DNA of 64,000 nt from Candidatus Eremiobacteria bacterium. Its GTDB lineage: Bacteria; Vulcanimicrobiota; Vulcanimicrobiia; Vulcanimicrobiales; Vulcanimicrobiaceae. The notes beneath the pieces are model-generated. The model worked only from the letters and a program-made list of their open reading frames with translations. It was not told where the DNA came from and searched no databases. This document shows positions 3,162-17,412 of this stretch, one piece after another (within the stretch, counting starts at the first letter, position 1; the number at the start of each line of letters is the position of its first letter). The position numbers and the translations under genes are program-made. Location of the stretch: NCBI GenBank assembly GCA_963758295.1, contig CAVWUU010000003.1:96001-160000 (forward strand), in the 5' to 3' direction.

Positions 3162-4568
3162 TTAGAGCTTGCAGATCGTAACGCTGAGCGTGGTGGAGCG
3201 CGGTTTAGGATTTTGCGGGTCGCTGTAATCGGTGATGAAGCGTTTATCTTCGGTTGCCGTGATGGAACACGTTCCGGATCCGGTCGGCTTTATGTCTAGT
3301 TCCGCGTTCGGACCGATGGCGAAGCCGGCGTTGTCGGTATATCCCGGCGGCGCGTCGTTGTACGAGCCGGCACGCGTCTCGATCGTGCACGGACCTTGCA
3401 GCGTCATATGAAAGACGCCGTCCCAAGGCACCGGCGCCGCCGGCGTACCCGGCTTGTACGTCGGGTCGTCAGCAATGAGCACGTGGAAGTTTTCGCGATC
3501 GCCTACTCTGCTCTGCGGCGGCCCCTGAGGATTGTTGCCGACGGCGTTGCAATCGATGCTCTCTTTCGCCGTAACGCAGCTGCGTAAATCTTGAACGTTC
3601 CCTGCAATGAAATTGTCGTACGTCGCCGGGACGGAGAATTGCGGGACGTTGCACGAGTTGTCGAGCGTGCATTCGAAGCCTTGCGCGGCCCCGTCCGGCT
3701 CAAAAACCGCGCGATCCGGTTTCGGCTTAACGATGTCGAACGTGACGGTTTGCCCGAATTGAATCGATCCCCCGTTGGCCGGCGTGATGTGACAGAAAAA
3801 CGATGGAATGCCGACGAGCGGCACGCCTTGGAGTGCGGGGTCGAGCATTCCGGTCGAAGTAAACGCGTTGAAACAACCCACCGAATACGTCGAAACACCG
3901 GAAGACGAGCTGTAGGTGAACTGCAAACCGCTGGGAAGGTTCGGCGCGTTCGCCGTGAGGTTGGTCGTTGAACCCGGCGCGACGGGGAAAGCGACGTCCG
4001 AAGTAGACTTTTCCGGCAAAACGGCGATTTGCGACGTGGTCAACGGCGCCAGCACGATATCCTTTACGACCGCTTTGAAGACGAGCTTTCGTCCGTCGAC
4101 GGTCGCATCGCCCAATTTAATGGGCGAGACGACTTGCGGCTGAGGAACGACTTGATAGAAGCTTGCGCCGAAGAGCGGGTTTTCCGGCGTGCAATGCAGC
4201 GTGACTTTGAAGCTGTCGATATCGATCGTTATGGGAAACGGAAACGGGTTGCGCAGCCGAATCGCGGGGACCGGCGGACACGTGGGCTTCTCGTGCATCG
4301 TTGTCAGGCGCGGCGATCGGCTCGTCGCGGCCAGGTCCGAATAGAAGCCGATTGCGGACGAGGGCAGCGCGGTGTTCGATCGGATGGAGATCGTCGCACT
4401 CGTTCCGTCCGTCGCGCTCACGGCGTACGAATGACGGATGCCGCCTTGCGCGGATTGCGCCTGTTCTGTCTGCGTTTGCGGACCGATGGCGTTTGAGCCG
4501 CTGCCGCAAGACGCGGCCAACGGCAGAAGAGCGGCAAGAACGAAGGCGCGATATCGATAGCACAGCAT
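3162..4568 (-). CDS. Hypothetical lipoprotein, beta-rich with several Cys
   Basis: 468-aa ORF; lipobox LAASC followed by a Gly/Ser/Gln linker; no recognisable catalytic motif. Confidence 0.7.
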   Translation of the reverse strand: MLCYRYRAFVLAALLPLAASCGSGSNAIGPQTQTEQAQSAQGGIRHSYAVSATDGTSATISIRSNTALPSSAIGFYSDLAATSRSPRLTTMHEKPTCPPVPAIRLRNPFPFPITIDIDSFKVTLHCTPENPLFGASFYQVVPQPQVVSPIKLGDATVDGRKLVFKAVVKDIVLAPLTTSQIAVLPEKSTSDVAFPVAPGSTTNLTANAPNLPSGLQFTYSSSSGVSTYSVGCFNAFTSTGMLDPALQGVPLVGIPSFFCHITPANGGSIQFGQTVTFDIVKPKPDRAVFEPDGAAQGFECTLDNSCNVPQFSVPATYDNFIAGNVQDLRSCVTAKESIDCNAVGNNPQGPPQSRVGDRENFHVLIADDPTYKPGTPAAPVPWDGVFHMTLQGPCTIETRAGSYNDAPPGYTDNAGFAIGPNAELDIKPTGSGTCSITATEDKRFITDYSDPQNPKPRSTTLSVTICKL

Positions 4569-4661
4569 AGCCGTAACCTAACAGCGGTCCCGCGAGCGCC
4601 TCTAGAGGCTTTCGTCCCAGTTTTGTTGCTTTGGCGCTCGCGGCAAGTCATAATTAGCCCG

Positions 4662-7472
4662 ATGGACATGGTCGCCGCTGTTCCGCAGCAAGCGGAAGAG
4701 CGTGTGCTTCCTTCCGGCAATGTCACGTTTCTATTTACGGATATTGTCGGCAGCACGGTGCGCTGGGAGAGCGATCCGGAGACGATGCGTCTGGACGTTC
4801 GCCGGCATGATATTCTCCTGCGCCGAGCGATCGAGTCGAACGGCGGGGTTGTCTTTAAAACGGTCGGCGACGCGTTTTGCGCCGCTTTTTCGGAGTTGCA
4901 AAATGCCATGCGCGCCGCAATCGACGCGCAACTCGCCATTTCGGACGAACGCTTTTCTTGCGACGGCGGCATTTCCGTTCGTATGGCGCTTCACGCCGGC
5001 AACGCCGAAGAGCGCGATTCCGATTACTTCGGTCCTACGTTGAATCGCATTGCCCGGTTGCTTGCAATCGGGCACGGCGGGCAGATTTTGCTCTCGAACG
5101 CGGTTGTCGAGTCTGCCGGCGGTGCATATCCCTGCGGCGGCAGCGCGCGCGATCTCGGCTTTCACCGGCTGAAAGACCTGACGGCAGCCGAACACGTGTT
5201 TCAGTTGCACGTTCCCGAGCTTATTTCCGAATTCGAACCGCTCCGATCGCTGAACTATCTCAGTAATAATCTCCCCGAGCAGACAACGAGTTTCGTGGGG
5301 CGCGAAGAAGACGTTGCGGAGATTCGCTTACTCGTGCAGCAGCATCGTTTAGTTACCTTAAGCGGAGCGGGCGGCATCGGAAAAACGCGGTGTGCGCTTC
5401 AGGCGGGCGCGGAATTACTGGAAGAGTATGCTGACGGCGTCTGGTTTATCGACCTCGCGCCGGTTCGCGATCCCATGTTGGTAGCCGGCACGATCGGGCG
5501 CGTCTTCGAATTACGCGAGACCCCGAACCAATCGCTTTACGACATGTTGACGCACCATCTGAAGAACAAGCAGTTGCTGCTAATCTTCGATAACTGCGAG
5601 CAAGTGGTAACCGAGGCTTCGCGGATCGCGGCGTCATTGTTGCGCGAATGTCCGGATGTTCGCATTCTTTCGACGAGCCGTGAGGCGCTCAACCTTAGCG
5701 GGGAAAAGCTGCATCGAATTCCGTCGCTTTGCGTGCCGCCCGTCGAAGCGAAGGCCCTGACGGCATTGACGGCGCTTGGATACAGCGCCGTCGCGCTTTT
5801 TGAGACTCGCGCTCAAAATGCAAATCCGCTCTTTACCGTGCGCGATGCAAACGCCGGCATCATCGCGCAGATCTGTCGCCGGCTCGATGGAATTCCGCTA
5901 GCGATCGAACTGGCCGCGGCTCGCCTACGCGTGCTCGGGCCCGTGCAACTCCTGGAGAAGCTGAACGAACGCTTCCGTGTGCTCGCCGGTGGAGATCGCA
6001 CGGCACTCCCGCGTCAGCAAACGATGCGCGCGCTGATTGACTGGAGCTACGATCTTTTGTGCGAACGGGAGCAATGGGTTTTCCAACAGATTTCGATCTT
6101 TGCCGACGGTTTCACGATCGAAACTGCGGCCGGCGTGTGCGCGAATGACGAGCTTGACGAACTCGACCTGCTGGACGTTCTGCAATCGCTGTGCGATAAA
6201 TCCCTGATGCTCGCCGAGCCGCAGTGCGAAACGATGCGGTACCGCCTGCTCGAGTCGATGAGCGCTTACGGCCGCGAAAAACTCGCGGCTTCGGGCAACG
6301 CAAATGACGCGGCGCAACGCCACGCCGAAACGTTCGCGCAATTCGTCGAACGGCTCGAAGATCAACGCGACACCTTGACGCCGCGCGAATGGCTCATGCA
6401 GGGCGAGGCCGAGATCGAGAATTTGCGCGCGGCACTGACGTTCTCGTTCTCCGGGAAGGGCAATCCGCTCGAGGGCCAACGGATCGCGGCCGTGCTCCCG
6501 CGCATCTTCGGTGTCCTCGCGGCAACCGAAGGTCTGCGATGGGTTCATACCGCGATCCAACGAGTGACCGAGGCCACGCCGCGTGAGGTCGTCGCCGGGC
6601 TTGAACTGGCGCACGCAAGCCTTGCGTCCGTGTTCAATCAGTTCGGCAACGCCCTTTCGGCGGCTCAACGCGCGCTGGATACGTACATCGCGCTGGATCG
6701 CGCGGCAGGCGTCGCCGATGCATTGCGCCTTGCGGGCCGGTCGCTTGTCTATCTCGGGCGGGTCGAGGAAGGTGAAAATTTGCTGCAAGAAGCGCTGAAT
6801 AATCGCCGCGCCGGCGGCTCTTCGCGCATCGGAAGCATTCTCGCCGACCTTGCGGTGGCGCGCGCATATCAGAACGATTTGCCGGGTGCCCGAACGCTCT
6901 TTGCGCGCGCTTCGGCAATGTACGAGGAGCGCGAAGACATCTCGAAGATCGCGGTAACCGCCGCCACGTTGGCCGAAGCCGAATTTTCCGGCGGAAATGC
7001 GCGTGAAGCCGTGCGGCTTGCCGAAAATGCGTTGGCGAGCGCGCGGATGTTGGGACGCTTCCGCACGGCCGAGGTCATCTTGGGAAATCTCGCCGCGTAC
7101 AACATTGAGCTGGGTGAATATGCTGCCGCTCGCGCTTCCGCTTGTGAAGCGCTGGAGATTTCGCAGACTCAAACCGACGCGATCTCGGTCGTCTTCGGCA
7201 TTCAACATCTGGCGGCGGTGGCAGCGCTCAGCGCTTGGGACGACGACGAAACAGCGATCGAACAACGAGTGCGCGCCGCCCGTCTGCTGGGCTTCGTCCA
7301 AAGGCGCCTTGCCGTTCTGGAAGTCGAACGCGAATACACCGAACAGTGCGGATACACGAAACTGCTAGCCGCCTTGTGCGACCTTTTTGAGCCCGAAGAT
7401 CTTCAGCCGCTCATGGACGACGGCGCCGGTTGGAGCGAAGAAAAGGCCCTGTCGGAGGCATTTCGCATTTGA
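4662..7472 (+). CDS. Class III adenylate/guanylate cyclase fused to STAND (NB-ARC-like) ATPase and TPR-like repeats
   Basis: Cyclase motifs FTDIVGST, KTVGDAF, DYFGPTLNRIARL; Walker A GAGGIGKT; LLIFDNCE; LDGIPLAIELAAAR; helical repeat C-terminus. Start codon uncertain (4623-4668). Confidence 0.9.
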   Translation: MDMVAAVPQQAEERVLPSGNVTFLFTDIVGSTVRWESDPETMRLDVRRHDILLRRAIESNGGVVFKTVGDAFCAAFSELQNAMRAAIDAQLAISDERFSCDGGISVRMALHAGNAEERDSDYFGPTLNRIARLLAIGHGGQILLSNAVVESAGGAYPCGGSARDLGFHRLKDLTAAEHVFQLHVPELISEFEPLRSLNYLSNNLPEQTTSFVGREEDVAEIRLLVQQHRLVTLSGAGGIGKTRCALQAGAELLEEYADGVWFIDLAPVRDPMLVAGTIGRVFELRETPNQSLYDMLTHHLKNKQLLLIFDNCEQVVTEASRIAASLLRECPDVRILSTSREALNLSGEKLHRIPSLCVPPVEAKALTALTALGYSAVALFETRAQNANPLFTVRDANAGIIAQICRRLDGIPLAIELAAARLRVLGPVQLLEKLNERFRVLAGGDRTALPRQQTMRALIDWSYDLLCEREQWVFQQISIFADGFTIETAAGVCANDELDELDLLDVLQSLCDKSLMLAEPQCETMRYRLLESMSAYGREKLAASGNANDAAQRHAETFAQFVERLEDQRDTLTPREWLMQGEAEIENLRAALTFSFSGKGNPLEGQRIAAVLPRIFGVLAATEGLRWVHTAIQRVTEATPREVVAGLELAHASLASVFNQFGNALSAAQRALDTYIALDRAAGVADALRLAGRSLVYLGRVEEGENLLQEALNNRRAGGSSRIGSILADLAVARAYQNDLPGARTLFARASAMYEEREDISKIAVTAATLAEAEFSGGNAREAVRLAENALASARMLGRFRTAEVILGNLAAYNIELGEYAAARASACEALEISQTQTDAISVVFGIQHLAAVAALSAWDDDETAIEQRVRAARLLGFVQRRLAVLEVEREYTEQCGYTKLLAALCDLFEPEDLQPLMDDGAGWSEEKALSEAFRI

Positions 7473-8728
7473 GCGAAGACCGGCGTGCGGTCGCGCGGGT
7501 GCGGCCGCACAACCCGATGCCGGAATCGCGCTTCGAAGTCCTCGCGTTATTTACCGGTGCGATGGTTGGCGCATCGCTTTTCTTGATGGCTACGGGCCCG
7601 CTGCTGCCGTTTCTCGGCGCGGCGTTTCACCTGAGCCAAACGCAACTCGGCCTCGTGCTTTCGGTGCAGATGAGCGGCTCCGTCTTAATGACTGCTGTCG
7701 CGGGCATGTTGACGGATCGCTTCGGCGATAAAGCGCTCGTACTCTGGACGGGCGTATTCATGGGCATCTCGCTCATTGCTGCGGCGTTCGTGCACGACTT
7801 CGGCTGGGTGCTTTTCTGGCTGCTGATGTACGGGATCGGTTTTGCGGCCGTGACGCCTTCGGGAAGTCACGCAATCATCTACTTTTTCAAGAAAAAAGAA
7901 CGCGGCTTGGCTATGGGCATCCGTCAGTGCGGCGTGCCCGCCGCGGGCGTTCTCGGCTCCATTCTGCTTCCGGCTGTAGCGGCGCGGTGGCACTACGATG
8001 CGGCTTTCATCGTCGCCGGTGTCGCAACCATCGTTTCGTGTTGTGCAGCATCGCTCTTATACCGCGAGCCCGTGGAGCTGGAAGGCGAACGCGTTTCCGT
8101 AAACGCGATGTTCGCCGAAATGGCCGTCATGGTTCGCAATGTGCGACTGCTTTTGCTCACGCTCACGTCCATGGGGCTGGTGTGCGGCCAGGTCGCCGTA
8201 ATGGCGTTTTTAACGCTGACGCTCGTTCGCGAAACGACAATAGGGCTTTTCGCTTGCGTGAGTCTCTTCACGCTTTCGCAATTCGCGGCCATCGGAGGCC
8301 GAATTTTCTGGGGATGGAGCAGCGATAAGCTTTTCGCCGGTAGCCGCGCACTGCCGCTCGGGGCCGTCGGCGTTCTTACCGGGCTGCTCGCGCTTTGCAC
8401 GTCATTTATCAGTCCGGTGACCGCCGCTTGGATTCTCGCAGTCCTAGCCGCCCTGCTAGGGTTCAGCGCCGAGGGATGGTTTGGCGTAGCGGTACTCGCA
8501 ATCGCCGAGGTCGGAGGAGAAGAGCACAGTGGAAGTGCTCTCGGCGCAGCGCTGACGTTCATTTTCATTGCCGGTTGTCTTGCGCCGATCGTTATCGGCG
8601 CCGTTTCGGAAGTCCACGGTTATGCCTTTGCGTGGCGCGGCGTCGCCTTCGTTCAGGCACTCGCCGTAATTCCGGCACTTTTCGCAACCGCGTATATGCG
8701 GCGCGTTTCGGAGACCGCATCGTCATAG
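7469..8728 (+). CDS. MFS transporter
   Basis: About 12 hydrophobic segments; GMLTDRFG motif A and WGWSSD. Possible TTG start overlapping the upstream TGA; alternative ATG at 7517. Confidence 0.88.
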   Translation: MSEDRRAVARVRPHNPMPESRFEVLALFTGAMVGASLFLMATGPLLPFLGAAFHLSQTQLGLVLSVQMSGSVLMTAVAGMLTDRFGDKALVLWTGVFMGISLIAAAFVHDFGWVLFWLLMYGIGFAAVTPSGSHAIIYFFKKKERGLAMGIRQCGVPAAGVLGSILLPAVAARWHYDAAFIVAGVATIVSCCAASLLYREPVELEGERVSVNAMFAEMAVMVRNVRLLLLTLTSMGLVCGQVAVMAFLTLTLVRETTIGLFACVSLFTLSQFAAIGGRIFWGWSSDKLFAGSRALPLGAVGVLTGLLALCTSFISPVTAAWILAVLAALLGFSAEGWFGVAVLAIAEVGGEEHSGSALGAALTFIFIAGCLAPIVIGAVSEVHGYAFAWRGVAFVQALAVIPALFATAYMRRVSETASS

Positions 8729-8755
8729 CAAAAAAAAGCTCCGCAATGCGAAGCT
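8729..8755 (-). terminator. Probable intrinsic terminator for the 9312-8794 gene
   Basis: Minus strand reads AGCTTCGCA-T-TGCGGAGCT followed by a long T run. Confidence 0.65.
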
Positions 8756-8793
8756 CTTTCAAGTGGAACGATTAACGTGCGTGAGTCTCTTGT

Positions 8794-9312
8794 CTACCGC
8801 ACGGTCACCGACGACGAACTCTTAACCCAAGCCGGAAACTTCTTGTCGGGCGTAATCGTCACGTCTTTGCCCTTAACCATGTTATGTGCGAAAAGCCCGA
8901 GCGGTCCCAACGCGACGGTAGCCGCGATAGTGGCAGTCGAGGCCTTTCCCTTTTCAGCATTGCCGCTCACGCTGCTGTCTTCCGTAAGTCGAATATTCGA
9001 TCCGTCGACGGCATGAATCGTATCGAAGGCGAGCGTTATCTCGCCGGCGCTTTTGCCTTGCGCCTTCGCGGCTTTGACGACGTGGCCGGAGCCGAGTGCG
9101 CCCTTTGCAATGACAACGTGTCCGCCGGCTATGACGGGCGCTGCGGCCTCAAACGCAAACGATTGACCGGCGACGGCGGTGCCTGATGATACCGGCTTCA
9201 AGACATGCACTTGTACCTGCGTTCCGACCGCGACGCTCTGCGTTGCGGCTAATGCCGTTAGCGGCAGAGTAAATGCCAGAAATGCACCGGTAATGGACGA
9301 TAGAATCCTCAT
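8794..9312 (-). CDS. Secreted hypothetical protein (beta-rich, C-terminal GPLGL..KGKD segment)
   Basis: GGAGG RBS upstream of ATG 9312; signal peptide ending in ALA-A. Confidence 0.75.
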   Translation of the reverse strand: MRILSSITGAFLAFTLPLTALAATQSVAVGTQVQVHVLKPVSSGTAVAGQSFAFEAAAPVIAGGHVVIAKGALGSGHVVKAAKAQGKSAGEITLAFDTIHAVDGSNIRLTEDSSVSGNAEKGKASTATIAATVALGPLGLFAHNMVKGKDVTITPDKKFPAWVKSSSSVTVR

Positions 9313-9473
9313 GGTGTTCCTCCAATTCAGCATTACCACGGGACGGAGAACCGAAGAGTCAACAACTACGAGAGATTTGGTACGGTTGATTACCTTCGGT
9401 GGGCTCCCGCCGGATGCCGCTTTCTCCGTTCGGGCAACAGTGCGCTTGCCGGCATCGGAATTACGTCGTCAAC

Positions 9474-9561
9474 GTCGACGCTCGTAAGCGCTCTTTTGTT
9501 GCGCGGGGCCAATGTGAAGTGCGGTCATTGACCTCCACAAACGCACGCAGGCCCTCTCTGC
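9474..9561 (-). pseudogene. Degenerate orphan 3' fragment (copy C) of the HExxH peptidase gene at 12396-11800
   Basis: Translates as EGLRAFVEVNDRTSHWPRATKERLR..VD versus EALRAFVEINDVTSHWPRATKIRLRNVD in the intact gene. Confidence 0.85.
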
Positions 9562-9605
9562 TTCTCGCTGGCGGGTGCTCGCGATAACAGGTCGAAGCGG
9601 CCAAG

Positions 9606-10859
9606 ATGCGGCCACGTCTTATGATGATCGTGGTCCTGATTGGGCTTTCGATCTTCATCAACTACATCGATCGCGGAAACTTAGCGACCGCGGCGACGCT
9701 CGTTGAAAAAGAACTCCATCTCTCGCCATCGCAGCTGGGCTTTTTACTGACGGCGTTCTTCATCACCTATATGCCGATGCAGCTCGTGGTAGGCTGGCTG
9801 GTCGACAAATACACTGCGAGTCGGGTGCTCGTCGTGGGATTCTTCATTTGGTCACTAGCGACATTACTTAGCGCATTTGCGGTCGGGTTCGTGTGGCTCT
9901 TTGCTTGCAGGCTGCTGCTCGGGCTGGGCGAGTCCGTCTCGTTCCCATCGATGGCAAAGCTTTTAGCAGAAAACGTAAACGAAAAGCAGCGTTGTTTCGC
10001 CAACGGTATTATTCAGGCGGGCCTGGCTTTCGGGTCGGCCTTCGGAATCTTCGTTGGTAGCGCGGTGATCGCGGAACACGGTTGGCGCCCGTTCTTCATT
10101 GGTTGCGGCGTAGTCAGCATGCTGTGGATCGTCGCCTGGCAGTTCGCATCGCGTGGGCACCTTCGTAAACGAAGCGCGGACGTGCGAGCGGCGGAAACGC
10201 CTGGCTTCGACCTCATTCTGCGCGAGCGGACGCTTTGGGGCGCATCCCTCGGGCATTTCGGCGGTAATCTCGTACTGTATTTCACGATCAGCTGGATTCC
10301 GTACTATCTAGTGCACGAACGCGGCTGGTCGATATCGCAGATGGGAATTATCGCGGGGTCTGCATCGCTGGCTGCTGGGTTAACGATGATTGTTTCCGGG
10401 CTCGTCTCCGATCACGCAATCCGCCACGGCGCGTCGCCGACCTTTGTAAGGAAGACGGCGTTTGCGACTGGCGGGCTGGGCGGCGCAATTTCGCTGCTCG
10501 GGTGCGGATATTCGCACGGTGCGAATGCTTCTGCAGCATGGCTTCTGGCTGCGGGGTTCTTCAGTGGACTTGCCGCTCTCAATACGTTCGTCGTGGCACA
10601 AACAAAGGCGGGAGACGCGACGGGGAAGTGGGTCGGCATTCAAAATATGTTAGCCAATGCCGCCGGCCTGATCGCTCCCTTGGTCACCGGAGTGCTGGTC
10701 GAGGCGACCGGAAACTTCAAGCTGCCATTTGCTTTGGCCGCACTCGCGGCGCTCGGGAGCGGTCTATCATGGACGCTGCTGACGGGAAAGATCGAACCGA
10801 TCGATTGGAAAGCACGAGCAATTGCTCGCTCTTACGCGCTTGCAGTGGTCGTTAAATAG
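9606..10859 (+). CDS. MFS transporter, anion:cation symporter (galactonate/hexuronate-like) family
   Basis: INYIDRGNL N-terminal motif, GWLVDKY, RLLLGLGES, GWRPFF. Confidence 0.88.
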   Translation: MRPRLMMIVVLIGLSIFINYIDRGNLATAATLVEKELHLSPSQLGFLLTAFFITYMPMQLVVGWLVDKYTASRVLVVGFFIWSLATLLSAFAVGFVWLFACRLLLGLGESVSFPSMAKLLAENVNEKQRCFANGIIQAGLAFGSAFGIFVGSAVIAEHGWRPFFIGCGVVSMLWIVAWQFASRGHLRKRSADVRAAETPGFDLILRERTLWGASLGHFGGNLVLYFTISWIPYYLVHERGWSISQMGIIAGSASLAAGLTMIVSGLVSDHAIRHGASPTFVRKTAFATGGLGGAISLLGCGYSHGANASAAWLLAAGFFSGLAALNTFVVAQTKAGDATGKWVGIQNMLANAAGLIAPLVTGVLVEATGNFKLPFALAALAALGSGLSWTLLTGKIEPIDWKARAIARSYALAVVVK

Positions 10860-10892
10860 GTTCCGATGGATGTGGTGGCGCACGTCTCGCGA

Positions 10893-11041
10893 CTACTTGG
10901 CAGCACTGAACGTGCAACGAAACAATCGATTTACGTACTCAAAGAGCATCGGATCGACCTTTCGCAAACGCCACTTCGTCGCCCGTGGCCAGTGCGACGT
11001 CACGTCGTTGATCTCAACAAAGGCGCGGAGCGCCTCTGCAA
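10893..11041 (-). pseudogene. Intact orphan 3' fragment (copy B, last 48 codons) of the HExxH peptidase gene
   Basis: AEALRAFVEINDVTSHWPRATKWRLRKVDPMLFEYVNRLFRCTFSAAK* has 37/48 residues identical to the intact gene end and the same length to the stop. No similarity upstream of the Ala codon. Confidence 0.9.
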
Positions 11042-11156
11042 TTATGTGGAATTGGCTGAACCGCGCCGCGCTGCGGGAGGGCCCTACAAACAGTCTCTTC
11101 GAAAGCAAGGTCCGCCCGCTGAGGCGGAGCTGTGGCGCCTACTTTTCGACGCGCGA

Positions 11157-11609
11157 TTACATCGCGGGTTTAACGGGGAGGTTTGTCTGCGGACCTTGAC
11201 CGCCGACCTGTTCGATAGTTTCGCCCTGGGCGATCGACCAGTGGTGCACGCCGGCCGGAACCATGATGAACGAACCTGTCGGCAACACTTTCGCGTTCGC
11301 TTTGTTCACTACGTCGCCGGTGCCGAAGAGAAGGGTACCTTGAATGACGGTAATGTACTCGTCGTGTGCATGGTAGTGCGGCTTGTTCGTGTATCCGTCC
11401 GGCATTTTAACGCGTGCAATTGCGTTGCCCGATTTATTCCGATCACCAACGAACGTCGTAAGGAAAAGGCCTTTTGATGCACCCGTTCCCGCCACCCAGT
11501 GTAGATTGTCGGGGGTGAAGGTCAGGGGATTTCCCGACCCGGCCGCGAGAGCGGCGCCTGCGCCAAATGCCAAGCTGAGTCCGATAAGGATTGAGGCAAG
11601 CAGTTTCAT
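11157..11609 (-). CDS. Secreted cupin-domain protein (DUF4437-like)
   Basis: AGAGGAG RBS; signal peptide ALA-A; cupin motifs PHYHAHDEYITVIQG and GSFIMVPAGVHH. Confidence 0.88.
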   Translation of the reverse strand: MKLLASILIGLSLAFGAGAALAAGSGNPLTFTPDNLHWVAGTGASKGLFLTTFVGDRNKSGNAIARVKMPDGYTNKPHYHAHDEYITVIQGTLLFGTGDVVNKANAKVLPTGSFIMVPAGVHHWSIAQGETIEQVGGQGPQTNLPVKPAM

Positions 11610-11799
11610 CGATTGAAGCTCCTCTGTTCCGATTGTTGCAGCATATGTGACACAACGGGGTAAGACGCCGAAGAAAACCAAGGCGTTCTAGGCGGATCGT
11701 AGCACCGCGCCTACGGTTAAGGAACTGCCGATATGCCCATTTAACGGGCGCAGCAATCAGAAGCTGCCTTGGCAGCCTTGCTTTAACGCACACGTCGTT

Positions 11800-12396
11800 C
11801 TAGGCCGCGACGGTAAACGCACATCGGAACAGGCACTCGACGTAGTCGTAGAGCTGCGGGTCCACGTTTCGTAATCGAATCTTCGTTGCGCGCGGCCAAT
11901 GCGACGTCACATCATTGATCTCCACAAATGCGCGGAGCGCCTCAGCAAGATATTCATCGATTCCGGTTGCGGCATACGGCGTTACGAATGCCCGTGCGTT
12001 AGCGAACAGACGGCGCAACTCCGGATCTACTCCGGAACGGTAGACGCCGCCGCCTAATGCGCAATCGAGCGCGTGGCCAAATTCGTGAGCGACGGTCATC
12101 GGGCTGCGGGAACGAAGATACACCGTGCGTTCTTCGACGACGAACAAGCCGGCCGGCGGGGCAGGCCACGCGTCCACGTTGATGCCAAGGCGCGCAAGCG
12201 CCGGTGATGCGTTGCAGTATTGCTCGTGCTTTTCGAGCGGCGAAATCCGGATGCCGCCGTCAAGCGCAAAGCGAAGCGCTCCCGCTCCGAATCGTTCGAG
12301 CGTCTCGACGATTGCGTCGTGCGATTTCACCGAACCCCTCGAGATTAGAGCAAGTGCAAGACCAGCGCAATCGGACATAGGGCACCAGTCTCGCAT
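11800..12396 (-). CDS. Zincin metallopeptidase (HEFGH; anthrax lethal factor/MtfA-like fold)
   Basis: VAHEFGHALD zinc motif; YAAT..DEYLAE third-ligand motif; DPxLY tail. Alternative start at 12378. Confidence 0.8.
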   Translation of the reverse strand: MRDWCPMSDCAGLALALISRGSVKSHDAIVETLERFGAGALRFALDGGIRISPLEKHEQYCNASPALARLGINVDAWPAPPAGLFVVEERTVYLRSRSPMTVAHEFGHALDCALGGGVYRSGVDPELRRLFANARAFVTPYAATGIDEYLAEALRAFVEINDVTSHWPRATKIRLRNVDPQLYDYVECLFRCAFTVAA

Positions 12397-12483
12397 CTCG
12401 ATGTTTTTGTACTATTGCCGCCTTACGTCCAAAGCGTTCGCACCGCCGCGAAACAAACTCCCGCGGGCAGCCGTAGCTGTGGC

Positions 12484-13359
12484 ATGAATCGGCTTCAAAT
12501 CGAGGCGCTTAATAAACGCTATCGTAGCGGCGTTCACGCCCTCAAGGATGTCTCGCTCGATTTCGGCCCGGGGGTGGTTGGATTGCTCGGCCCAAACGGG
12601 GCCGGAAAGTCGTCGTTGATGCGCATTATCTCGACAGTGATGAAGCCGACGAGCGGCACGGTCCGTTGGAATGGTGCAGCGGTTGCGGCGAAGCCGGATG
12701 CTCTTCGGTCGCAACTCGGTTATCTTCCGCAGGATGCCGGCGTCTATCCGAATTTGACCGCGCGTGAATTTCTGCGCTATATGGCGGCGTTGAAAGGATT
12801 AAGCGGGCGCGCCGCAGAGCGAAACATCGGCGAGCTGCTCGAGCAATTAAACCTTACAGCGGCCGGAAGCCGCCCGCTCGGAGGCTTTTCCGGCGGTATG
12901 AAGCAGCGCGTTGGCATCGCTCAAGCATTGCTAGGCGATCCGCAAATCGTCGTCGTCGACGAGCCTACCGTCGGTCTCGACCCGGAGGAGCGCTCGCGCT
13001 TCCGCGAGTTGATTACCGGGATGGCGGGCGATCGCATCGTGATTCTCTCGACCCATATCGTTTCGGATGTAGAAACGATTGCCGAGCGCGTCGTAATGAT
13101 TGCCGACGGCGCGGTAATTGCCGATGCCGCACCCGACGTGCTTGCATCCCAACTCGACGGCAGTGCGTGGCAAGGGATGATTGCACCGGGCGAGCTTGCA
13201 CCGATGCGCGAGAAGTATGCGGTGACGTCGGCGGTTCGCCGGCGCGACGGGGTCCTCGTGAAGCTTTGCGCTAAACATGCCCCCGACGGATTCTCAGCCG
13301 TACAGCCGTCCCTAGAAGACGTGTACTTGGTGAACGTGCGTGAGGCGCGCATCGCGTGA
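12484..13359 (+). CDS. ABC transporter ATP-binding protein (ABC-2 type)
   Basis: Walker A GPNGAGKS, signature FSGGMKQR, Walker B VVVDEPT, H-loop LSTH. Confidence 0.95.
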   Translation: MNRLQIEALNKRYRSGVHALKDVSLDFGPGVVGLLGPNGAGKSSLMRIISTVMKPTSGTVRWNGAAVAAKPDALRSQLGYLPQDAGVYPNLTAREFLRYMAALKGLSGRAAERNIGELLEQLNLTAAGSRPLGGFSGGMKQRVGIAQALLGDPQIVVVDEPTVGLDPEERSRFRELITGMAGDRIVILSTHIVSDVETIAERVVMIADGAVIADAAPDVLASQLDGSAWQGMIAPGELAPMREKYAVTSAVRRRDGVLVKLCAKHAPDGFSAVQPSLEDVYLVNVREARIA

Positions 13360-14862
13360 GCGCGGTTCTGACGATTGCCGGAGCCGACGCTGCCGAACGG
13401 ATGCGCCGGTTTGCCTTTATCCTCACGATTGCGGCCGCGCTCTATGCGGGATACCTGTATGTCCCCGAAGCGAGCGCGACGTATCATACAGTGGTCATTC
13501 ATGGACACGGCGGCATTTATAATTCCGCGTTCTATGGAGCCACGATCGCCGCTCTAAGCGGCGGATTTCTCACGCTCTTCGGGTTTTTTCTTGTGCGCGG
13601 TGCGATCGAACGCGACGCGGAGTGCCACGTCGACGCAATGGTCGCAGCGTCTCGGGTTCGCAAGAGCGTTTTCGTTCTGTCGAAGTGGCTGAGCAGCGCC
13701 GCGGTTCTGTGGGCTGTCGCGGGCCTCTCGTATTTGGCCGCGATGGTCATGCAGATATTGCGTGGGCATTCGCTGCAGGTGGACCCGTTGGCTTACGTCG
13801 GTCCTTACTTGTTGATCACGATGCCCGCAATGGGATTCGTTGCCGCCGTGGCGACGGTCTTCGACATCATTCCGTTCTTGCGCGGTGTCCTCGGCACGAT
13901 CGTATTCCTTATACTGTGGCCGGCATTGCTCGCAACACCGATGAGCGCCGGCTCGGGCGGCGTGCGGGCTCTCGACCCGCTAGGCTTCAGCGTGATTGCC
14001 TCGAGCCTTATCGGCTCGGAACAGCGCGCGTTTCCAAGGGATGTGTCTTCGGACGTCAATTTCGGAGTGATCGCCACTGCGCATATCGGACAGCCGTTTG
14101 CGTTTTCGGGATTTCAGTGGACGAGCGAAATCGTCATGCAGCGACTCGCCTGGATCGCGGTCGCGGTGCTGCTCGTGCTGCTTGCATCGAGGTTCTTTGA
14201 CTTATTCCGCCGCGAGAACGTGCGCGCGAGCCGAAGGCTCTTTATCGACGTCGCGCGCGTTATTCCGAACGTCCCCTTTCTGCGAATTTTTCGCGCCGAG
14301 CTTGGCCTGATTGCAAGCGGCGCAAGCCTTTGGTGGTACCTCGGCGCAATCGGCATCATCATTGCCGGCGCACTCGTGCCGTTCGAGAGCGTCACGAAGG
14401 TCGTACTGCCAATCGCGTTGATCTGGCCGCTGGAACGTATTTCGGCGCTTGGCGCGCGCGAGCGGCGCTTTGGGGTCGATGCGATCGTATCAACGACCGC
14501 GGGCTTCGCCACGAAGACGCTGGCATTTCAATGGCTCGCGGGCGCACTTGTGGCATTCGTGGTTTGTTCGAGCTTGCATGTTGCGCTTGGTGCTTACGGG
14601 CGACGGATTGAGTCTCTTCGCGTGTCTTGCCGTTGCCGCGGCGATTTCTGCTCTGGCGTTGGCCCTCGGCACCCTCGCCGGTGCGTCGCGTCCGTTCGAA
14701 GCGTTGTTCTTACTCGCTTGGTATCTCGGACCGGTTCAACATGTACCGGGCATTGACTTTGCAACCGGCATGCGAACGGCTCCACTAGCAACGACGATCG
14801 TGTGCGTGCTGCTCGCTGCCTTTGGCCTTGCCGTCACGACGGGCCGAAGGTCCATACACTGA
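13356..14862 (+). CDS. ABC-2 type permease, frameshifted near 14580-14610
   Basis: GTG start overlaps the ATPase stop; multi-TM protein. The hydrophobic C-terminus continues in ORF 14449-14862 (ALALGTLAGASRPFEALFLLAWY). Confidence 0.8.
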
Positions 14863-14873
14863 AGGGACCGATC

Positions 14874-15766
14874 TTACTCTCGCCAGACGAAAATCTTCGG
14901 AACGCCATGCTGCGTACCAATGCCGGCGATCGAGCCGTCTCCGGTAACCGCATAGGCTGATTCGAAACGCCAGCCCGGTGGATGTGGTAGGTCATCCAGG
15001 CGCCGAAGGAGTCCGTTGCGCCAACGAAAGGCAAAATGACGTCCTTTAGCATCGCTCAACATGCCCACGACCGTCCCGTTGTCGCTCACGCCATACGCGA
15101 CGCTGCGCGGCGATTTCGGGGCGAGGTCGATGCGGCGTCCCATTCTGTCCCAAGCTACCGCATGCGGAATACCGGGGCAGTTGGTCTGCGTCGTAGTGCC
15201 TCCAGTGCCTGAAAACGTTACGGACATGCAGCCGGCTCGTGCCGGCAGCGCGTCTGCGCCGACGGCCAATCCGGTGCTGTTGATTGCGAGTGCGTCTCCC
15301 GGGCCGAGTTCGCGGAGGTGTTCGCCGTACCAACGCGCCAGCGTGGACAACGCCTCGCCCTAAGTTGCGACAGCTGGAACCACGCGACGTAGGCATATGG
15401 AGCGTACTCTTCGGGAGCGTCTCCCATCACTTGGAACGAGCCCGCCCCAGAGGCTGTTACGAGAAGGTCGTTACCGGCGCCGGCGATACCGGCTGCAATG
15501 GCGTTGGAGTCTTCCCCGCCGTTCTGCTGAGCCCCGGGCTGCGTCACTACGTCCAATGCGCGAAAGATCTCCGGGCTACCATCGTTACCCCAGCGAAAAG
15601 CGCGAGTCCGGTAGGTTCCGTCCGTCGATCCGGCAATGGCGCCGACCGTGCCGTTCGCAGTAAGCGCGATCATCGGGACGGTGCCCTCAGGATCGACCGT
15701 GAAGCCGACCGGCATGGAGAGTGCCCGAACGAAAGCGATGGCTGTGAGCACAAGCACTAAATCCAA
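14874..15766 (-). CDS. Secreted HAF-repeat (extracellular beta-propeller-like) protein, frameshifted near 15350
   Basis: Repeats RAFRW, ALAINSTG, HAVAW, AYGVSDNGTVVG, FAFRW and AYAVTGDGSIAG are split across ORFs 15218-15766 and 14874-15350. Confidence 0.7.
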
Positions 15767-15817
15767 CCTCCAGGTGCGAGCAGCGTGCGGATGTGCTGCT
15801 TCGTGATGTCTCGTGAG

Positions 15818-16405
15818 TCAGTTCGGTAGTGTAGATGAAGGCACGTTTGCGGATGCGATCGCTGCAGCCATGGCCAGCTTGTGATCGCTATTCCACGGCG
15901 AACCAAGGCCATTGCGCATCTGCGCGAAGCGATCGTCGAAGCTTTCGATGCCCAGGATTTGGCTCGCCAAAGTCGATACCGTTTTCGCATCGTACCAGTA
16001 AACGGACCAACCGCGCGATTCGGCGGCCGACGCGAGCGCCTCACGATACATCACCCAGTCGGCAACGTTTCGCGCGCGGTAATTGGTGATTCGATCGGCG
16101 ATCGTGGGCGGCAGCTGTTGGCGCGCGCGAAGAGCGACGCCGGCTATACCGGGAACCGACCCTGCGACTGCATCGAGCGCGAGTAAGGCATGTCTGTCCG
16201 CGGAAGCGCGCACGCGCTCAACTAAGGCAACGGCATCGGCGATGGGCATGAGCTGCCCTTCATGATGATGAGGCAACGCCGGCAAGTCGTGGTCCACGAG
16301 TTCGACTCGACGGCGATCGAGAAGCGTTCCGTCGGGCGTAACGGTTACCAGCACCGCCCACCCGCCATGATCTGAAACACCGATGACGCCGCCGGCCGCC
16401 GTCAT
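15818..16405 (-). CDS. Conserved hypothetical protein
   Basis: 195-aa ORF whose ATG overlaps the LLM gene stop; protein-like composition ([23 protein letters not shown]). Confidence 0.7.
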
Positions 16406-17412
16406 GCAACGGCGTCCGCGGCTTGCGCGGCAATTTCAAACGAGCGCAAGCGCGCGGCGTGATCGTAAATCATTCCGGTGACAATGACTTCGTCGACGTT
16501 CGTGTGTTGCACGAACGAAGCAACGCCGCGGACGACCGTGTCTCGCGTTCCCACAATCGCGTATCGAAGCGTCTGCTCGACCATTTCTTGCTCCATAGGC
16601 GACCAAAAGCCGTCCATTGTTCCGCGAGGCGCCGGTAATCGTCCCGGGCGGCCGCGACGCAAGTTTATGAACGACTGCTGATGCGACGTAAAGAGACGGC
16701 GCGCTTCTTCGATGGTGTCCGCGGCAATAATATTCATGCCGGCCGCGGAATACGGCTCGCGCAACTGTGCAGTCGGTTGGAATTCCTGTCGATACATGTT
16801 CAGGGCTGGAAGCAACATGTCCGGCGCAAAGTGCGATGCAAACGCAAACCGCAATCCGAGCATGGCGGCAAGTCGCGCGCTGAAAAGGCTGGAGCCAAGA
16901 AGCCAAACCGGAATGTCGCTGCCGGCACCCGGAACGGCCGTTACCGTGCGATGCGAGGGCGGCGCCTGAAAGTAATTCATCAGCTCCATGACGTCTTGCG
17001 GAAAGGTATCGTCGCTTCGGAGTAAATTCCGCCGCAATGCGCGCGCGGTCATCTGATCGGTACCAGGCGCGCGTCCCAAACCCAGGTCGATTCTTCCCGG
17101 ATACAGCGCTTCGAGGGTGCCGAACTGTTCCGCCACGAGCAACGGCGCATGGTTGGGCAACATCACGCCGCCCGATCCAATGCGGATCCTTGTCGTGCCT
17201 GCGCCGATATAAGCAAGCGCAACGGCGGTGGCTGCGCTGGCTATTCCGGGCATGTTGTGATGTTCGGCGAGCCAGTACCGCCGGTAGTTCCATCGTTCCG
17301 CGTGCTGCGCGAGATCGAGAGAATTCTTTAAAGCCTGCCCCGCACTCGCGCCCTCGGCAATCGGCGCGAGATCGAGAATCGAAAGCGGAACGGTTTTGAC
17401 TTTGTCGGTCAC
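16402..17412 (-). CDS. LLM-class flavin-dependent oxidoreductase (luciferase family, YhbW-like)
   Basis: [50 protein letters not shown]. Confidence 0.95.

Follow-up and report, generated by a model that had tools for sequence, protein, structure and literature searches.

Why should the end of a single gene be present three times, on the same strand and at short distances from one another? The question is raised by a 64,000-nucleotide (nt) stretch of a Candidatus Eremiobacteria bacterium (GenBank assembly GCA_963758295.1, contig CAVWUU010000003.1, positions 96,001 to 160,000), which is called the window below; its positions carry the prefix w, and the genome it comes from is G000. In the window, a gene for a HEFGH zinc-metallopeptidase-like protein is followed by further copies of its own last 48 codons. 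The three minus-strand copies, named tails A, B and C, are listed in Table 1 with their surroundings. Our analysis points to a docking site at the conserved end of a peptidase gene in soil Eremiobacterota, where small mobile cassettes stack up, each with a spare gene end and a 15-letter signal. A site-specific cassette array built on 3'-end replacement is the best explanation of the locus, and we consider it probably correct.

Table 1. Features of the peptidase-gene locus, in window positions
Feature	Positions	Strand	Remarks
Resident gene	11800..12396	-	198-aa HEFGH zinc-metallopeptidase-like open reading frame; codons 1-150 native, 151-198 from cassette 1
attB-like site, border of gene and cassette 1	11932..11960	-	GATGAATATC-TTGCTG-AGGCGCTCCGCGC (B arm, 6-nt overlap, B' arm); from junction alignments
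Tail A, present gene end, part of the cupin cassette	11800..11946	-	48 codons and stop
Cargo of cassette 1, secreted cupin-domain protein, 174 aa	11157..11681	-	Pfam Cupin_1, Cupin_2, DUF4437
Cupin cassette (tail A, cupin, motif)	about 11040-11948	-	
C arm, CAATTCCACATAATT, end of cassette 1	11040..11054	-	with the following GCAGAGG, an attR-type site
Tail B, displaced gene end	10893..11039	-	still open for 48 codons to the stop
Cargo of cassette 2, MFS transporter, 417 aa	9606..10859	+ (opposite to gene)	Pfam MFS_1 at 7e-55
Tail C, decayed displaced end	about 9474..9561	-	HMM positions 147-172, E 7e-9; C arm and Ala-Glu codons deleted
Hypothetical secreted protein, 181 aa, beyond tail C	8794..9339	-	absent from G003; cargo or original flank

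The peptidase sequence matches only three places in the 3.03-Mb, six-contig assembly (E = 1.5e-135, 2.2e-20 and 3.4e-7), so that a chance origin of the three matches is excluded. Tail B has 76% nt identity to tail A over 133 nt, and tail C can be aligned over 75 nt at 69-75% identity. The likeness of A and B begins sharply at the Ala codon of ...EYL/AEALRAF (the slash marks the border), and the 22 codons before it are unrelated. A codon-by-codon comparison gives nine synonymous and no non-synonymous differences in codons 151-172, and 20 synonymous and 11 non-synonymous codons over the 48 codons in full. Downstream of the gene come tail A, cupin, motif, tail B, major facilitator superfamily (MFS) transporter and tail C, in that order, with a single gene in each interval and a tail-to-tail spacing of 907 nt (A-B) and 1480 nt (B-C). 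Tail C is the most decayed copy, and by comparison with the genome G270 its junction motif was lost in a deletion of about 25 nt. The GC content is 0.57-0.58 in the cassettes and 0.60 in the flanks. An initial annotation, made from the sequence alone, had described three copies in one orientation, a common limit of likeness at the A-E codons of EYLAE, the nine-to-zero count, spacings of about 0.9 and 1.5 kb with one gene in each, and a distal copy more decayed than the others; all of this was borne out.

Is this layout peculiar to one genome? The peptidase gene is found in 39 of 41 relatives and in 363 of the 385 genomes of the class, mostly in single copy. These counts, and the survey of one-mismatch attL-like sequences reported below, include unpublished genomes, which otherwise underlie only the synteny of G004; the array genomes cited are not flagged unpublished. 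A tail profile was then run on 69 genomes, namely those with more than one match in the class survey and their genus mates. At least 26 orphan tails, from 19 of these genomes and 10 genera, start at tail-profile position 11-14. With the full-length hidden Markov model (HMM), 23 of the 39 orphan-tail matches in the fetched loci start at positions 143-147, and the other 16 start earlier or later, the later-starting ones being mostly visibly decayed. The array structure recurs as well: orphan tails form same-strand series 3' of the intact gene, five of them in G271, four in G074 and two each in G270, G070 and G062. Open reading to the stop (48-49 codons) is kept in 19 of 32 distinct orphan tails that are preceded by the motif described below. 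Several short-read contigs break off exactly at a tail, as a repeat would be expected to cause, and contigs ending at or inside orphan tails were seen in G068:C217, G248:C165, G354:C56, L064 and L066. Therefore such arrays are likely under-assembled and under-counted in metagenome bins.

Other layouts were met in this survey. In G035, which belongs to another order (L024, G035:C2, 6389-8918), a 77-aa fragment open reading frame (ORF) starts about 20 codons upstream of the usual breakpoint and has no junction motif, with two paralogous membrane-protein genes in between; it may represent a different element family or a duplication. In G073 (L048, G073:C6:7000-17000), two full-length peptidase copies share a strand and are 3.5 kb from each other, with a BlaI/BlaR1-like pair in the interval, a tandem-paralogue layout unlike the tail-only arrays.

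What marks the border of the tails? Each well-kept orphan tail is preceded by CAATTCCACATAAT(T/C) and then at once by GCNGAGG(C/G)GCTNCGCGC. The junction consensus is CAATTCCACATAATT/GCNGAGG, in which the first part is an almost invariant 15-nt non-coding motif. The motif alignment held 32 distinct sequences, among them a chance match without a tail (L072), which leaves 31 junctions. Before the motif the information content is about 0 bits; it is 1.6-2.0 bits per position across the motif and 0.1-0.2 bits at the wobble positions of the tail; therefore the motif is conserved as DNA and the tail as coding sequence. The motif is also specific to the arrays. Its core, AATTCCACATAATT, occurs once in G000, at tail B; all 11 matches in G070, G074, G270 and G271 lie inside arrays, and none was found in G003. 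A scan of species-representative genomes returned 15 motif stretches, all in Eremiobacterota records except one chance match, and the motif-bearing public records are titled Candidatus Eremiobacter(ae)ota, Vulcanimicrobiota or Candidatus Aquilonibacter. A metagenome scan returned 11 stretches, eight with an HMM-detectable tail, one with a decayed tail and two by chance. A match in Metaplanococcus (L056) and the metagenome matches L072 and L074 were set aside as chance, with no tail behind the motif. Reading the site as an attC-like hairpin, an inverted repeat around a GC-rich spacer, was also dropped, because the right-hand repeat is free wobble in many tails.

The other end of the element can be seen in three genomes. 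In attL-type junctions of G005, G006 and G296, the 5' part of the gene is followed by the exact reverse complement of the motif, or C arm: the gene part, ending in ...GA(C/T)GA(A/G)TA(T/C)TT(T/C)GCC, leads into GTTATGTGGAAT, and the whole reads gene 5' part, then TTATGTGGAAT. The sequence TTATGTGGAA of these three attL junctions (the C' arm) is the exact reverse complement of the motif core TTCCACATAA of the 31 attR junctions (the C arm), and the overlap TTGCNG is common to the element junctions and the gene. With B and B' for the gene arms and O for the overlap, the intact gene carries attB as GAYGAATATT-TTGCCG-AGGCGCTCCG, attL reads B-O-C' (G005, G006, G296), and attR, before every orphan tail, reads C-O-B'. 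The element site itself, TTCCACATAA-TTGCCG-TTATGTGGAA, is a reconstruction only, and would be a tyrosine-recombinase core with 10-bp inverted arms around a 6-bp overlap. The sequence GCCGTTATGCGGAAT was considered and rejected: one-mismatch relatives of the attL pattern occur once per genome in many genera, within the end of a conserved protein gene, and three of six exact matches lie in unrelated genes (G006:C248, G023:C56, G005:C5:147470). In G006 (L029, G006:C165, 8117-8966), a partial copy covering about residues 71-146 stands directly 3' of the intact gene and ends in the attL-type junction. Viral contigs held no junction motif, attP-type site or integrase relative.

The cargo is small and ordinary. 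Delimited cassettes, 24 in number, measure 251-3491 nt (median about 1.5 kb) and hold zero to four ORFs of at least 80 aa, 12 on the strand of the gene and 19 on the opposite strand. Pfam labels among the 153 ORFs in and around the arrays include cupin, MFS and sugar transporters, glyoxalase, beta-lactamase-fold and alpha/beta hydrolases, epoxide hydrolase, amine oxidase, LysR regulators, BlaI/BlaR1-like pairs, extracytoplasmic function (ECF) sigma factors with DUF6596 and YCII, glycosyltransferase, nucleotide-sugar enzymes and S41 peptidase; many ORFs are without a family. One cassette of G074 carries an insertion sequence (IS; rve).

Do the cassettes stay with their host lineage? They are exchanged between genera. 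G003, of the same genus as G000, has a peptidase 89% identical and aligns collinearly with the window. The nt identity is about 78-80% in the flanking MFS gene, the 5' part of the peptidase gene and the ABC genes, and 94-99% over w11091-11922 (cupin, spacer and tail A), with one mismatch in w11801-11922. G270, of another genus, has both window cassettes in unchanged order. Between w11947 and the motif near w11040 it is about 97% identical to G000; the figures are 74-80% for the part of the gene that precedes the overlap, 70-80% for tail B against the second tail of G270, and 96-100% for the MFS cargo. The cupin cassette taken as a unit has 96-99% identity across the two genera; the second cassette of G270 has an additional 1.3-kb gene, and the motif before its tail 3 is kept. 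The cupin cargo of the window matches G003 and G270 at 94-100% nt identity. Among the 435 resident-gene pairs of 30 genomes, only three were found in which the tails resemble each other far more closely than the 5' parts do, and these are the pairs of G000, G003 and G270 (tails 96.5-97.2%, gene 5' parts 75.8-79.2%).

The same cassette is present in soil metagenomes. Contigs X2 and X3, from two metagenome studies, cover w11023-11948 at about 95% and diverge exactly at both borders. Past w11948 they continue with TTATGTGGAATTG, the C arm of a preceding cassette; therefore the cupin cassette is internal in the array of X2 and X3. As assembled contigs they tell of presence and joints, not of abundance or activity. 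In nine sequencing runs the shares of sampled words were 0.06-0.11, for contigs only, the uncovered parts of the stretch being uninformative.

The surroundings change too. G003 is without w8700-11091. A single deletion has taken away everything from the last part of the cupin cassette to the 181-aa gene, including tails B and C and the MFS cassette, and the remaining cupin cargo is now joined 29 nt past the stop codon of the MFS gene upstream. Homologues of w1-2273 and w20916-22000 flank the gene in G004 (unpublished) and in G010. From these layouts, both sides of the gene are therefore variable in the clade. Across relatives, the comparison that the initial annotation had proposed thus gives the same breakpoint with variable cargo, and identical cassettes in different genera and array positions.

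How could such an array arise while the gene stays intact? We propose that codons 148-156 of the peptidase gene serve as attB for a family of tyrosine-recombinase elements. The cassettes would be non-autonomous units of 0.25-3.5 kb with one to four ordinary metabolic or transport genes, and the site that each brings would be a hybrid C-O-B', in which the C arm and the overlap lead into the cassette's own version of the last 48 codons. On integration, the incoming tail would be fused to the gene, so that the gene remains intact and an attB-like site is regenerated, and the old tail would be displaced downstream, behind the cargo, leaving the junction of C arm, overlap and old tail there. Repeated integration would then build an array with the newest cassette beside the gene. 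The cassettes may pass through a circular form and may be moved by an integrase that a transient element supplies in trans. A hybrid C-O-B' site with a complete tail would account for the intact gene, for growth at one end and for a motif on each orphan tail. The suggestion of the initial annotation that the gene is an attB hotspot gathering minimal cassettes by 3'-end replacement gains support from the recurrent breakpoint, the 31 motif junctions and the variable cargo. Its further suggestion of an age-ordered array holds in the window and in G271, and not strictly in G074, whose most distal tail is intact.

Which enzyme could do this? Integrases of one family adjoin the site in two genomes. 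In G005 (same genus, error-prone assembly), a 13.3-kb insert is placed exactly at the breakpoint, with a tyrosine integrase at its far end, 45 nt from the displaced tail. In G088, of another genus, an integrase 49% identical to the G005 enzyme adjoins an orphan tail. Both integrase-associated ends are seen only in G005, not in G088; for a third homologue, in G371, no tail could be detected in the vicinity. The search for integrase-bearing elements at the 3' fragment, another proposal of the initial annotation, thus returned these two candidates, and its idea that the recombinase is encoded elsewhere is supported, since an integrase of the G005/G088 type was not found in G000, where there are only an Xer-like gene (28% identical) and one frameshifted fragment. 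No match to PF00589 and no intI was found near or beside the arrays, and, apart from the one IS (rve), the scan of 153 ORFs gave no recombinase in the 24 delimited cassettes. For serine recombinases, the sole match to PF00239 in the five array genomes lay on a small contig of G271, and PF01797 (Y1 transposases) was found in none of the five. With no integrase in the cassettes or in G000, the enzyme would have to act in trans, presumably from a transient element, and its activity on the cassettes is what we infer from the sequences.

Some other findings belong to these integrases. The G005 insert (L097, G005:C5:122000-141000, 3480-16770) carries a large set of Rhs-repeat/DUF6531 proteins, a secretin and hypothetical genes, and looks like a polymorphic-toxin-like export locus on an integrase element. 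Integrases about 3 kb upstream of second peptidase copies in G222:C26 and G296:C29 were not taken as the cassette recombinase: they come from two genera, are 92% identical to each other and about 23% to the G005 enzyme, and they belong to an element resembling integrative and conjugative elements (ICEs), with no C arm nearby. In G222 (L049, G222:C26:107000-116000; L134, L135), the second copy lies on this ICE-like element with a TraG-like gene and ends in ...DEYL and a stop at the usual breakpoint, where it is cut by a 2.8-kb insert; the insert holds a candidate defence pair (PADLOC PDC-M01A/B, PtuA-like ATPase), followed by an attR-like site and tail.

Are the cassettes still in use? A wider proposal is that they form a second, integron-independent cassette system, whose minimal units travel among Eremiobacterota in circular form and are inserted by a trans-acting tyrosine integrase at a self-regenerating site in an essential-looking peptidase gene, and in which the displaced tails are spare ends reused on excision. 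Such reuse would explain why 19 of the 32 tails are still open with patterns of purifying selection. We put this forward only tentatively, as a possibility somewhat less likely than not and well below the array reading itself.

Several observations weigh against a site-specific array moved by integrase. The high identity of G000 and G003 stops at w11922, which is 24 nt inside the tail and not at the overlap; this suggests that homologous recombination also acts. The order of the cassettes is equal in G000 and G270, so blocks may move together. Scans of 3.9 Mb of sequence and of viral contigs gave neither an intact C-O-C' site nor a circular form. The attR beside the G005 and G088 integrases differs in its C arm (variants TTCTCAATAA / TTCTAAATAA) and in its overlap, and neither integrase was found linked to the canonical cassette site. 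A search at E<=1e-20 did not find their family in 29 of 30 genomes, all array-bearing ones included, and at E<=1e-25 it was found in just two of 201 family genomes with a completeness of 85% or more. G000, G270, G271, G074 and G070 have in common just one tyrosine recombinase, which is Xer-like.

Might the array be a passive fossil, which is the main rival reading? In that case integrase islands would have integrated serially with replacement tails and been whittled down to their cargo, and the cassettes would be immobile and spread by homologous recombination through the gene and tail arms. The missing integrase in array genomes, the identity switch at w11922 and the shared order in G000 and G270 all fit such a history, as do frequent deletions, of w8700-11091 in G003 and of the motif of tail C. 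Degenerate remnants of serial integrations are also described for tycheposons in a preprint (bioRxiv 10.1101/2020.12.28.424599). However, the 0.9-kb cupin cassette has identical borders in four contexts, in one of them internally, and independent whittling would not stop at the same nucleotides. The 15-nt non-coding motif is near-invariant despite free synonymous sites next to it, which argues for ongoing selection or use. A fossil array is unlikely in our judgement.

Another candidate for the enzyme is the host itself, whose single Xer-type recombinase might move the cassettes, as for integrative mobile elements exploiting Xer (IMEX) and the pdif modules of Acinetobacter plasmids. The Xer-like enzyme is indeed the sole tyrosine recombinase common to the five array genomes examined, and the arms CATAA / TTATG recall what we take to be the general dif consensus. 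Yet there is no second CATAA-N6-TTATG site in G000, G070, G271, G009, G011 and G014 apart from a palindrome in the 16S leader, and dedicated integrases adjoin the site in G005 and G088, so that Xer-dependent modules appear quite improbable. Beside the xer gene, neither intergenic space nor a shared motif for dif was found, and a chromosomal dif was not identified. The palindrome TCCATAA-N6-TTATGGA was considered as dif and rejected, as it stands directly before AGAGTTTGATCCTGGCTCAG, the 5' end of 16S rRNA. It is perfect, occurs once per genome (G000:C4:428584-428611, outside the window; L092-L096) and is probably an rRNA leader processing stem, easily mistaken for dif. Lastly, decayed tandem paralogues or an assembly artefact, for which one could cite the two full-length copies 3.5 kb apart in G073, the G035 fragment with its other start and no motif, and the frequent breaks of short-read contigs at tails, are hardly credible given the constant breakpoint, a motif foreign to the gene, unrelated cargo between cassettes, arrays in many independent assemblies (some of one or two contigs) and borders bridged by independent soil contigs.

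What does the target gene encode? The ORF of the protein ends in ...GIDEYLAEALRAFVEINDVTSHWPRATKIRLRNVDPQLYDYVECLFRCAFTVAA, with HEFGH at residues 104-108, and no Pfam or NCBIfam model matches it above threshold. A profile of 17 homologues gives a weak match to the catalytic domain of anthrax lethal factor (E 0.004) over HEFGHAxD...E(Y/F)FAE. For the AlphaFold2 model (pLDDT 93.8, pTM 0.91), Foldseek finds lethal factor and the Pro-Pro-endopeptidases (PPEPs) PPEP-1/Zmp1, PPEP-2 and PPEP-3, proteins of about 190 aa, with E from 2e-5 and TM scores of 0.63-0.70. By these matches, the product is an M34-type zincin in its predicted fold. The likeness to M34 zincins (lethal factor catalytic domain, PPEPs) covers the HEFGH motif and the fold of the whole protein, whereas the identity is just 14-21% and no Pfam family is reached above threshold; the gene here is a conserved single-copy gene of the class, with no evidence of secretion or a toxin context. 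Y141 and E148 are invariant, and are placed where, on the residue numbering we assume, PPEP-1 has Y178 and its third zinc ligand. If that numbering holds, the catalytic residues would all lie 5' of the breakpoint and the replaced tail would comprise only the last helices.

New here are the minimal, integrase-less cassettes with a standard 15-nt arm and a coding tail, together with the self-regenerating target, the sharing of cassettes between genera and the host phylum. Almost nothing is known of gene exchange in the uncultured soil phylum Eremiobacterota, and a search of open-access papers and preprints for the phylum with integron or gene-cassette terms gave nothing relevant. The locus offers a DNA signature for mining cassettes in soil metagenomes, a concrete site pair with candidate integrases, and a means of studying how non-autonomous cassettes survive and spread when a recombinase is rarely resident.

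How does this array compare with known systems? The elements e14 and phage 21 in icd, and ICESt1 and ICESt3 in fda, integrate within the 3' end of a protein-coding gene and supply a new end for it. The logic here is the same attB/attP pair of phages and ICEs with 3'-end replacement, reduced to a 15-nt arm and a coding tail. As in icd and fda, attB lies within the coding 3' end and a diverged copy with mostly synonymous changes restores the frame, the former end comes to lie behind the element so that direct repeats of the gene end flank the insert with the 198-aa ORF intact, and inverted arms surround a short overlap (here reconstructed, an intact attP not being seen). The units here differ in being 0.25-3.5 kb long without integrase, excisionase, phage or conjugation genes; those elements encode their own integrase, which is the case here just in the larger G005 and G088 inserts. 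Up to five units stand in series here, and the incoming site is a hybrid of an element arm and a gene-type arm, which regenerates the target each time. The accretion of ICEs and cis-mobilizable elements (CIMEs) at fda follows a similar logic of serial integration, and, like the cassettes here, CIMEs are flanked by the att sites of an element family and lack recombination genes.

Serial integration is also described for tycheposons at tRNA genes of Prochlorococcus, where newer elements push older ones inward and partial target copies remain (bioRxiv 10.1101/2020.12.28.424599). Tycheposons and CIMEs share with the present arrays serial integration at one site, scattered target remnants, cargo of an adaptive type and non-autonomous members, which here would rely on the integrase of a relative. 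The target here is a protein gene and not the tRNA gene of tycheposons, and compared with both systems the cassettes are minimal with a standard 15-nt end, most array genomes have no resident integrase, and the host phylum is the uncultured Eremiobacterota.

The initial annotation had called the array integron-like. This holds for its function, and not for its parts, since there is no intI, no attC-type site and cargo on both strands. Like an integron, it lines up small cassettes, mostly of one gene, in order at one chromosomal site; each cassette has its own recombination site, and cassettes are common to several taxa. Clusters of attC sites without an integrase (CALINs) are a known form of such arrays, and here too the array persists without a nearby integrase. 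Unlike in integrons, no IntI is found beside the array, the junction is ATAATT/GCNGAG instead of G/TTRRRY, and the cassette site contains 144 nt of coding sequence. Integron cassettes are promoterless and co-oriented, whereas the cargo here is divided into 12 ORFs on the same strand and 19 on the opposite one, so it is not read from one promoter. Integrons are the textbook platform of single-gene cassettes, and the arrays described here would reach the same outcome by other means.

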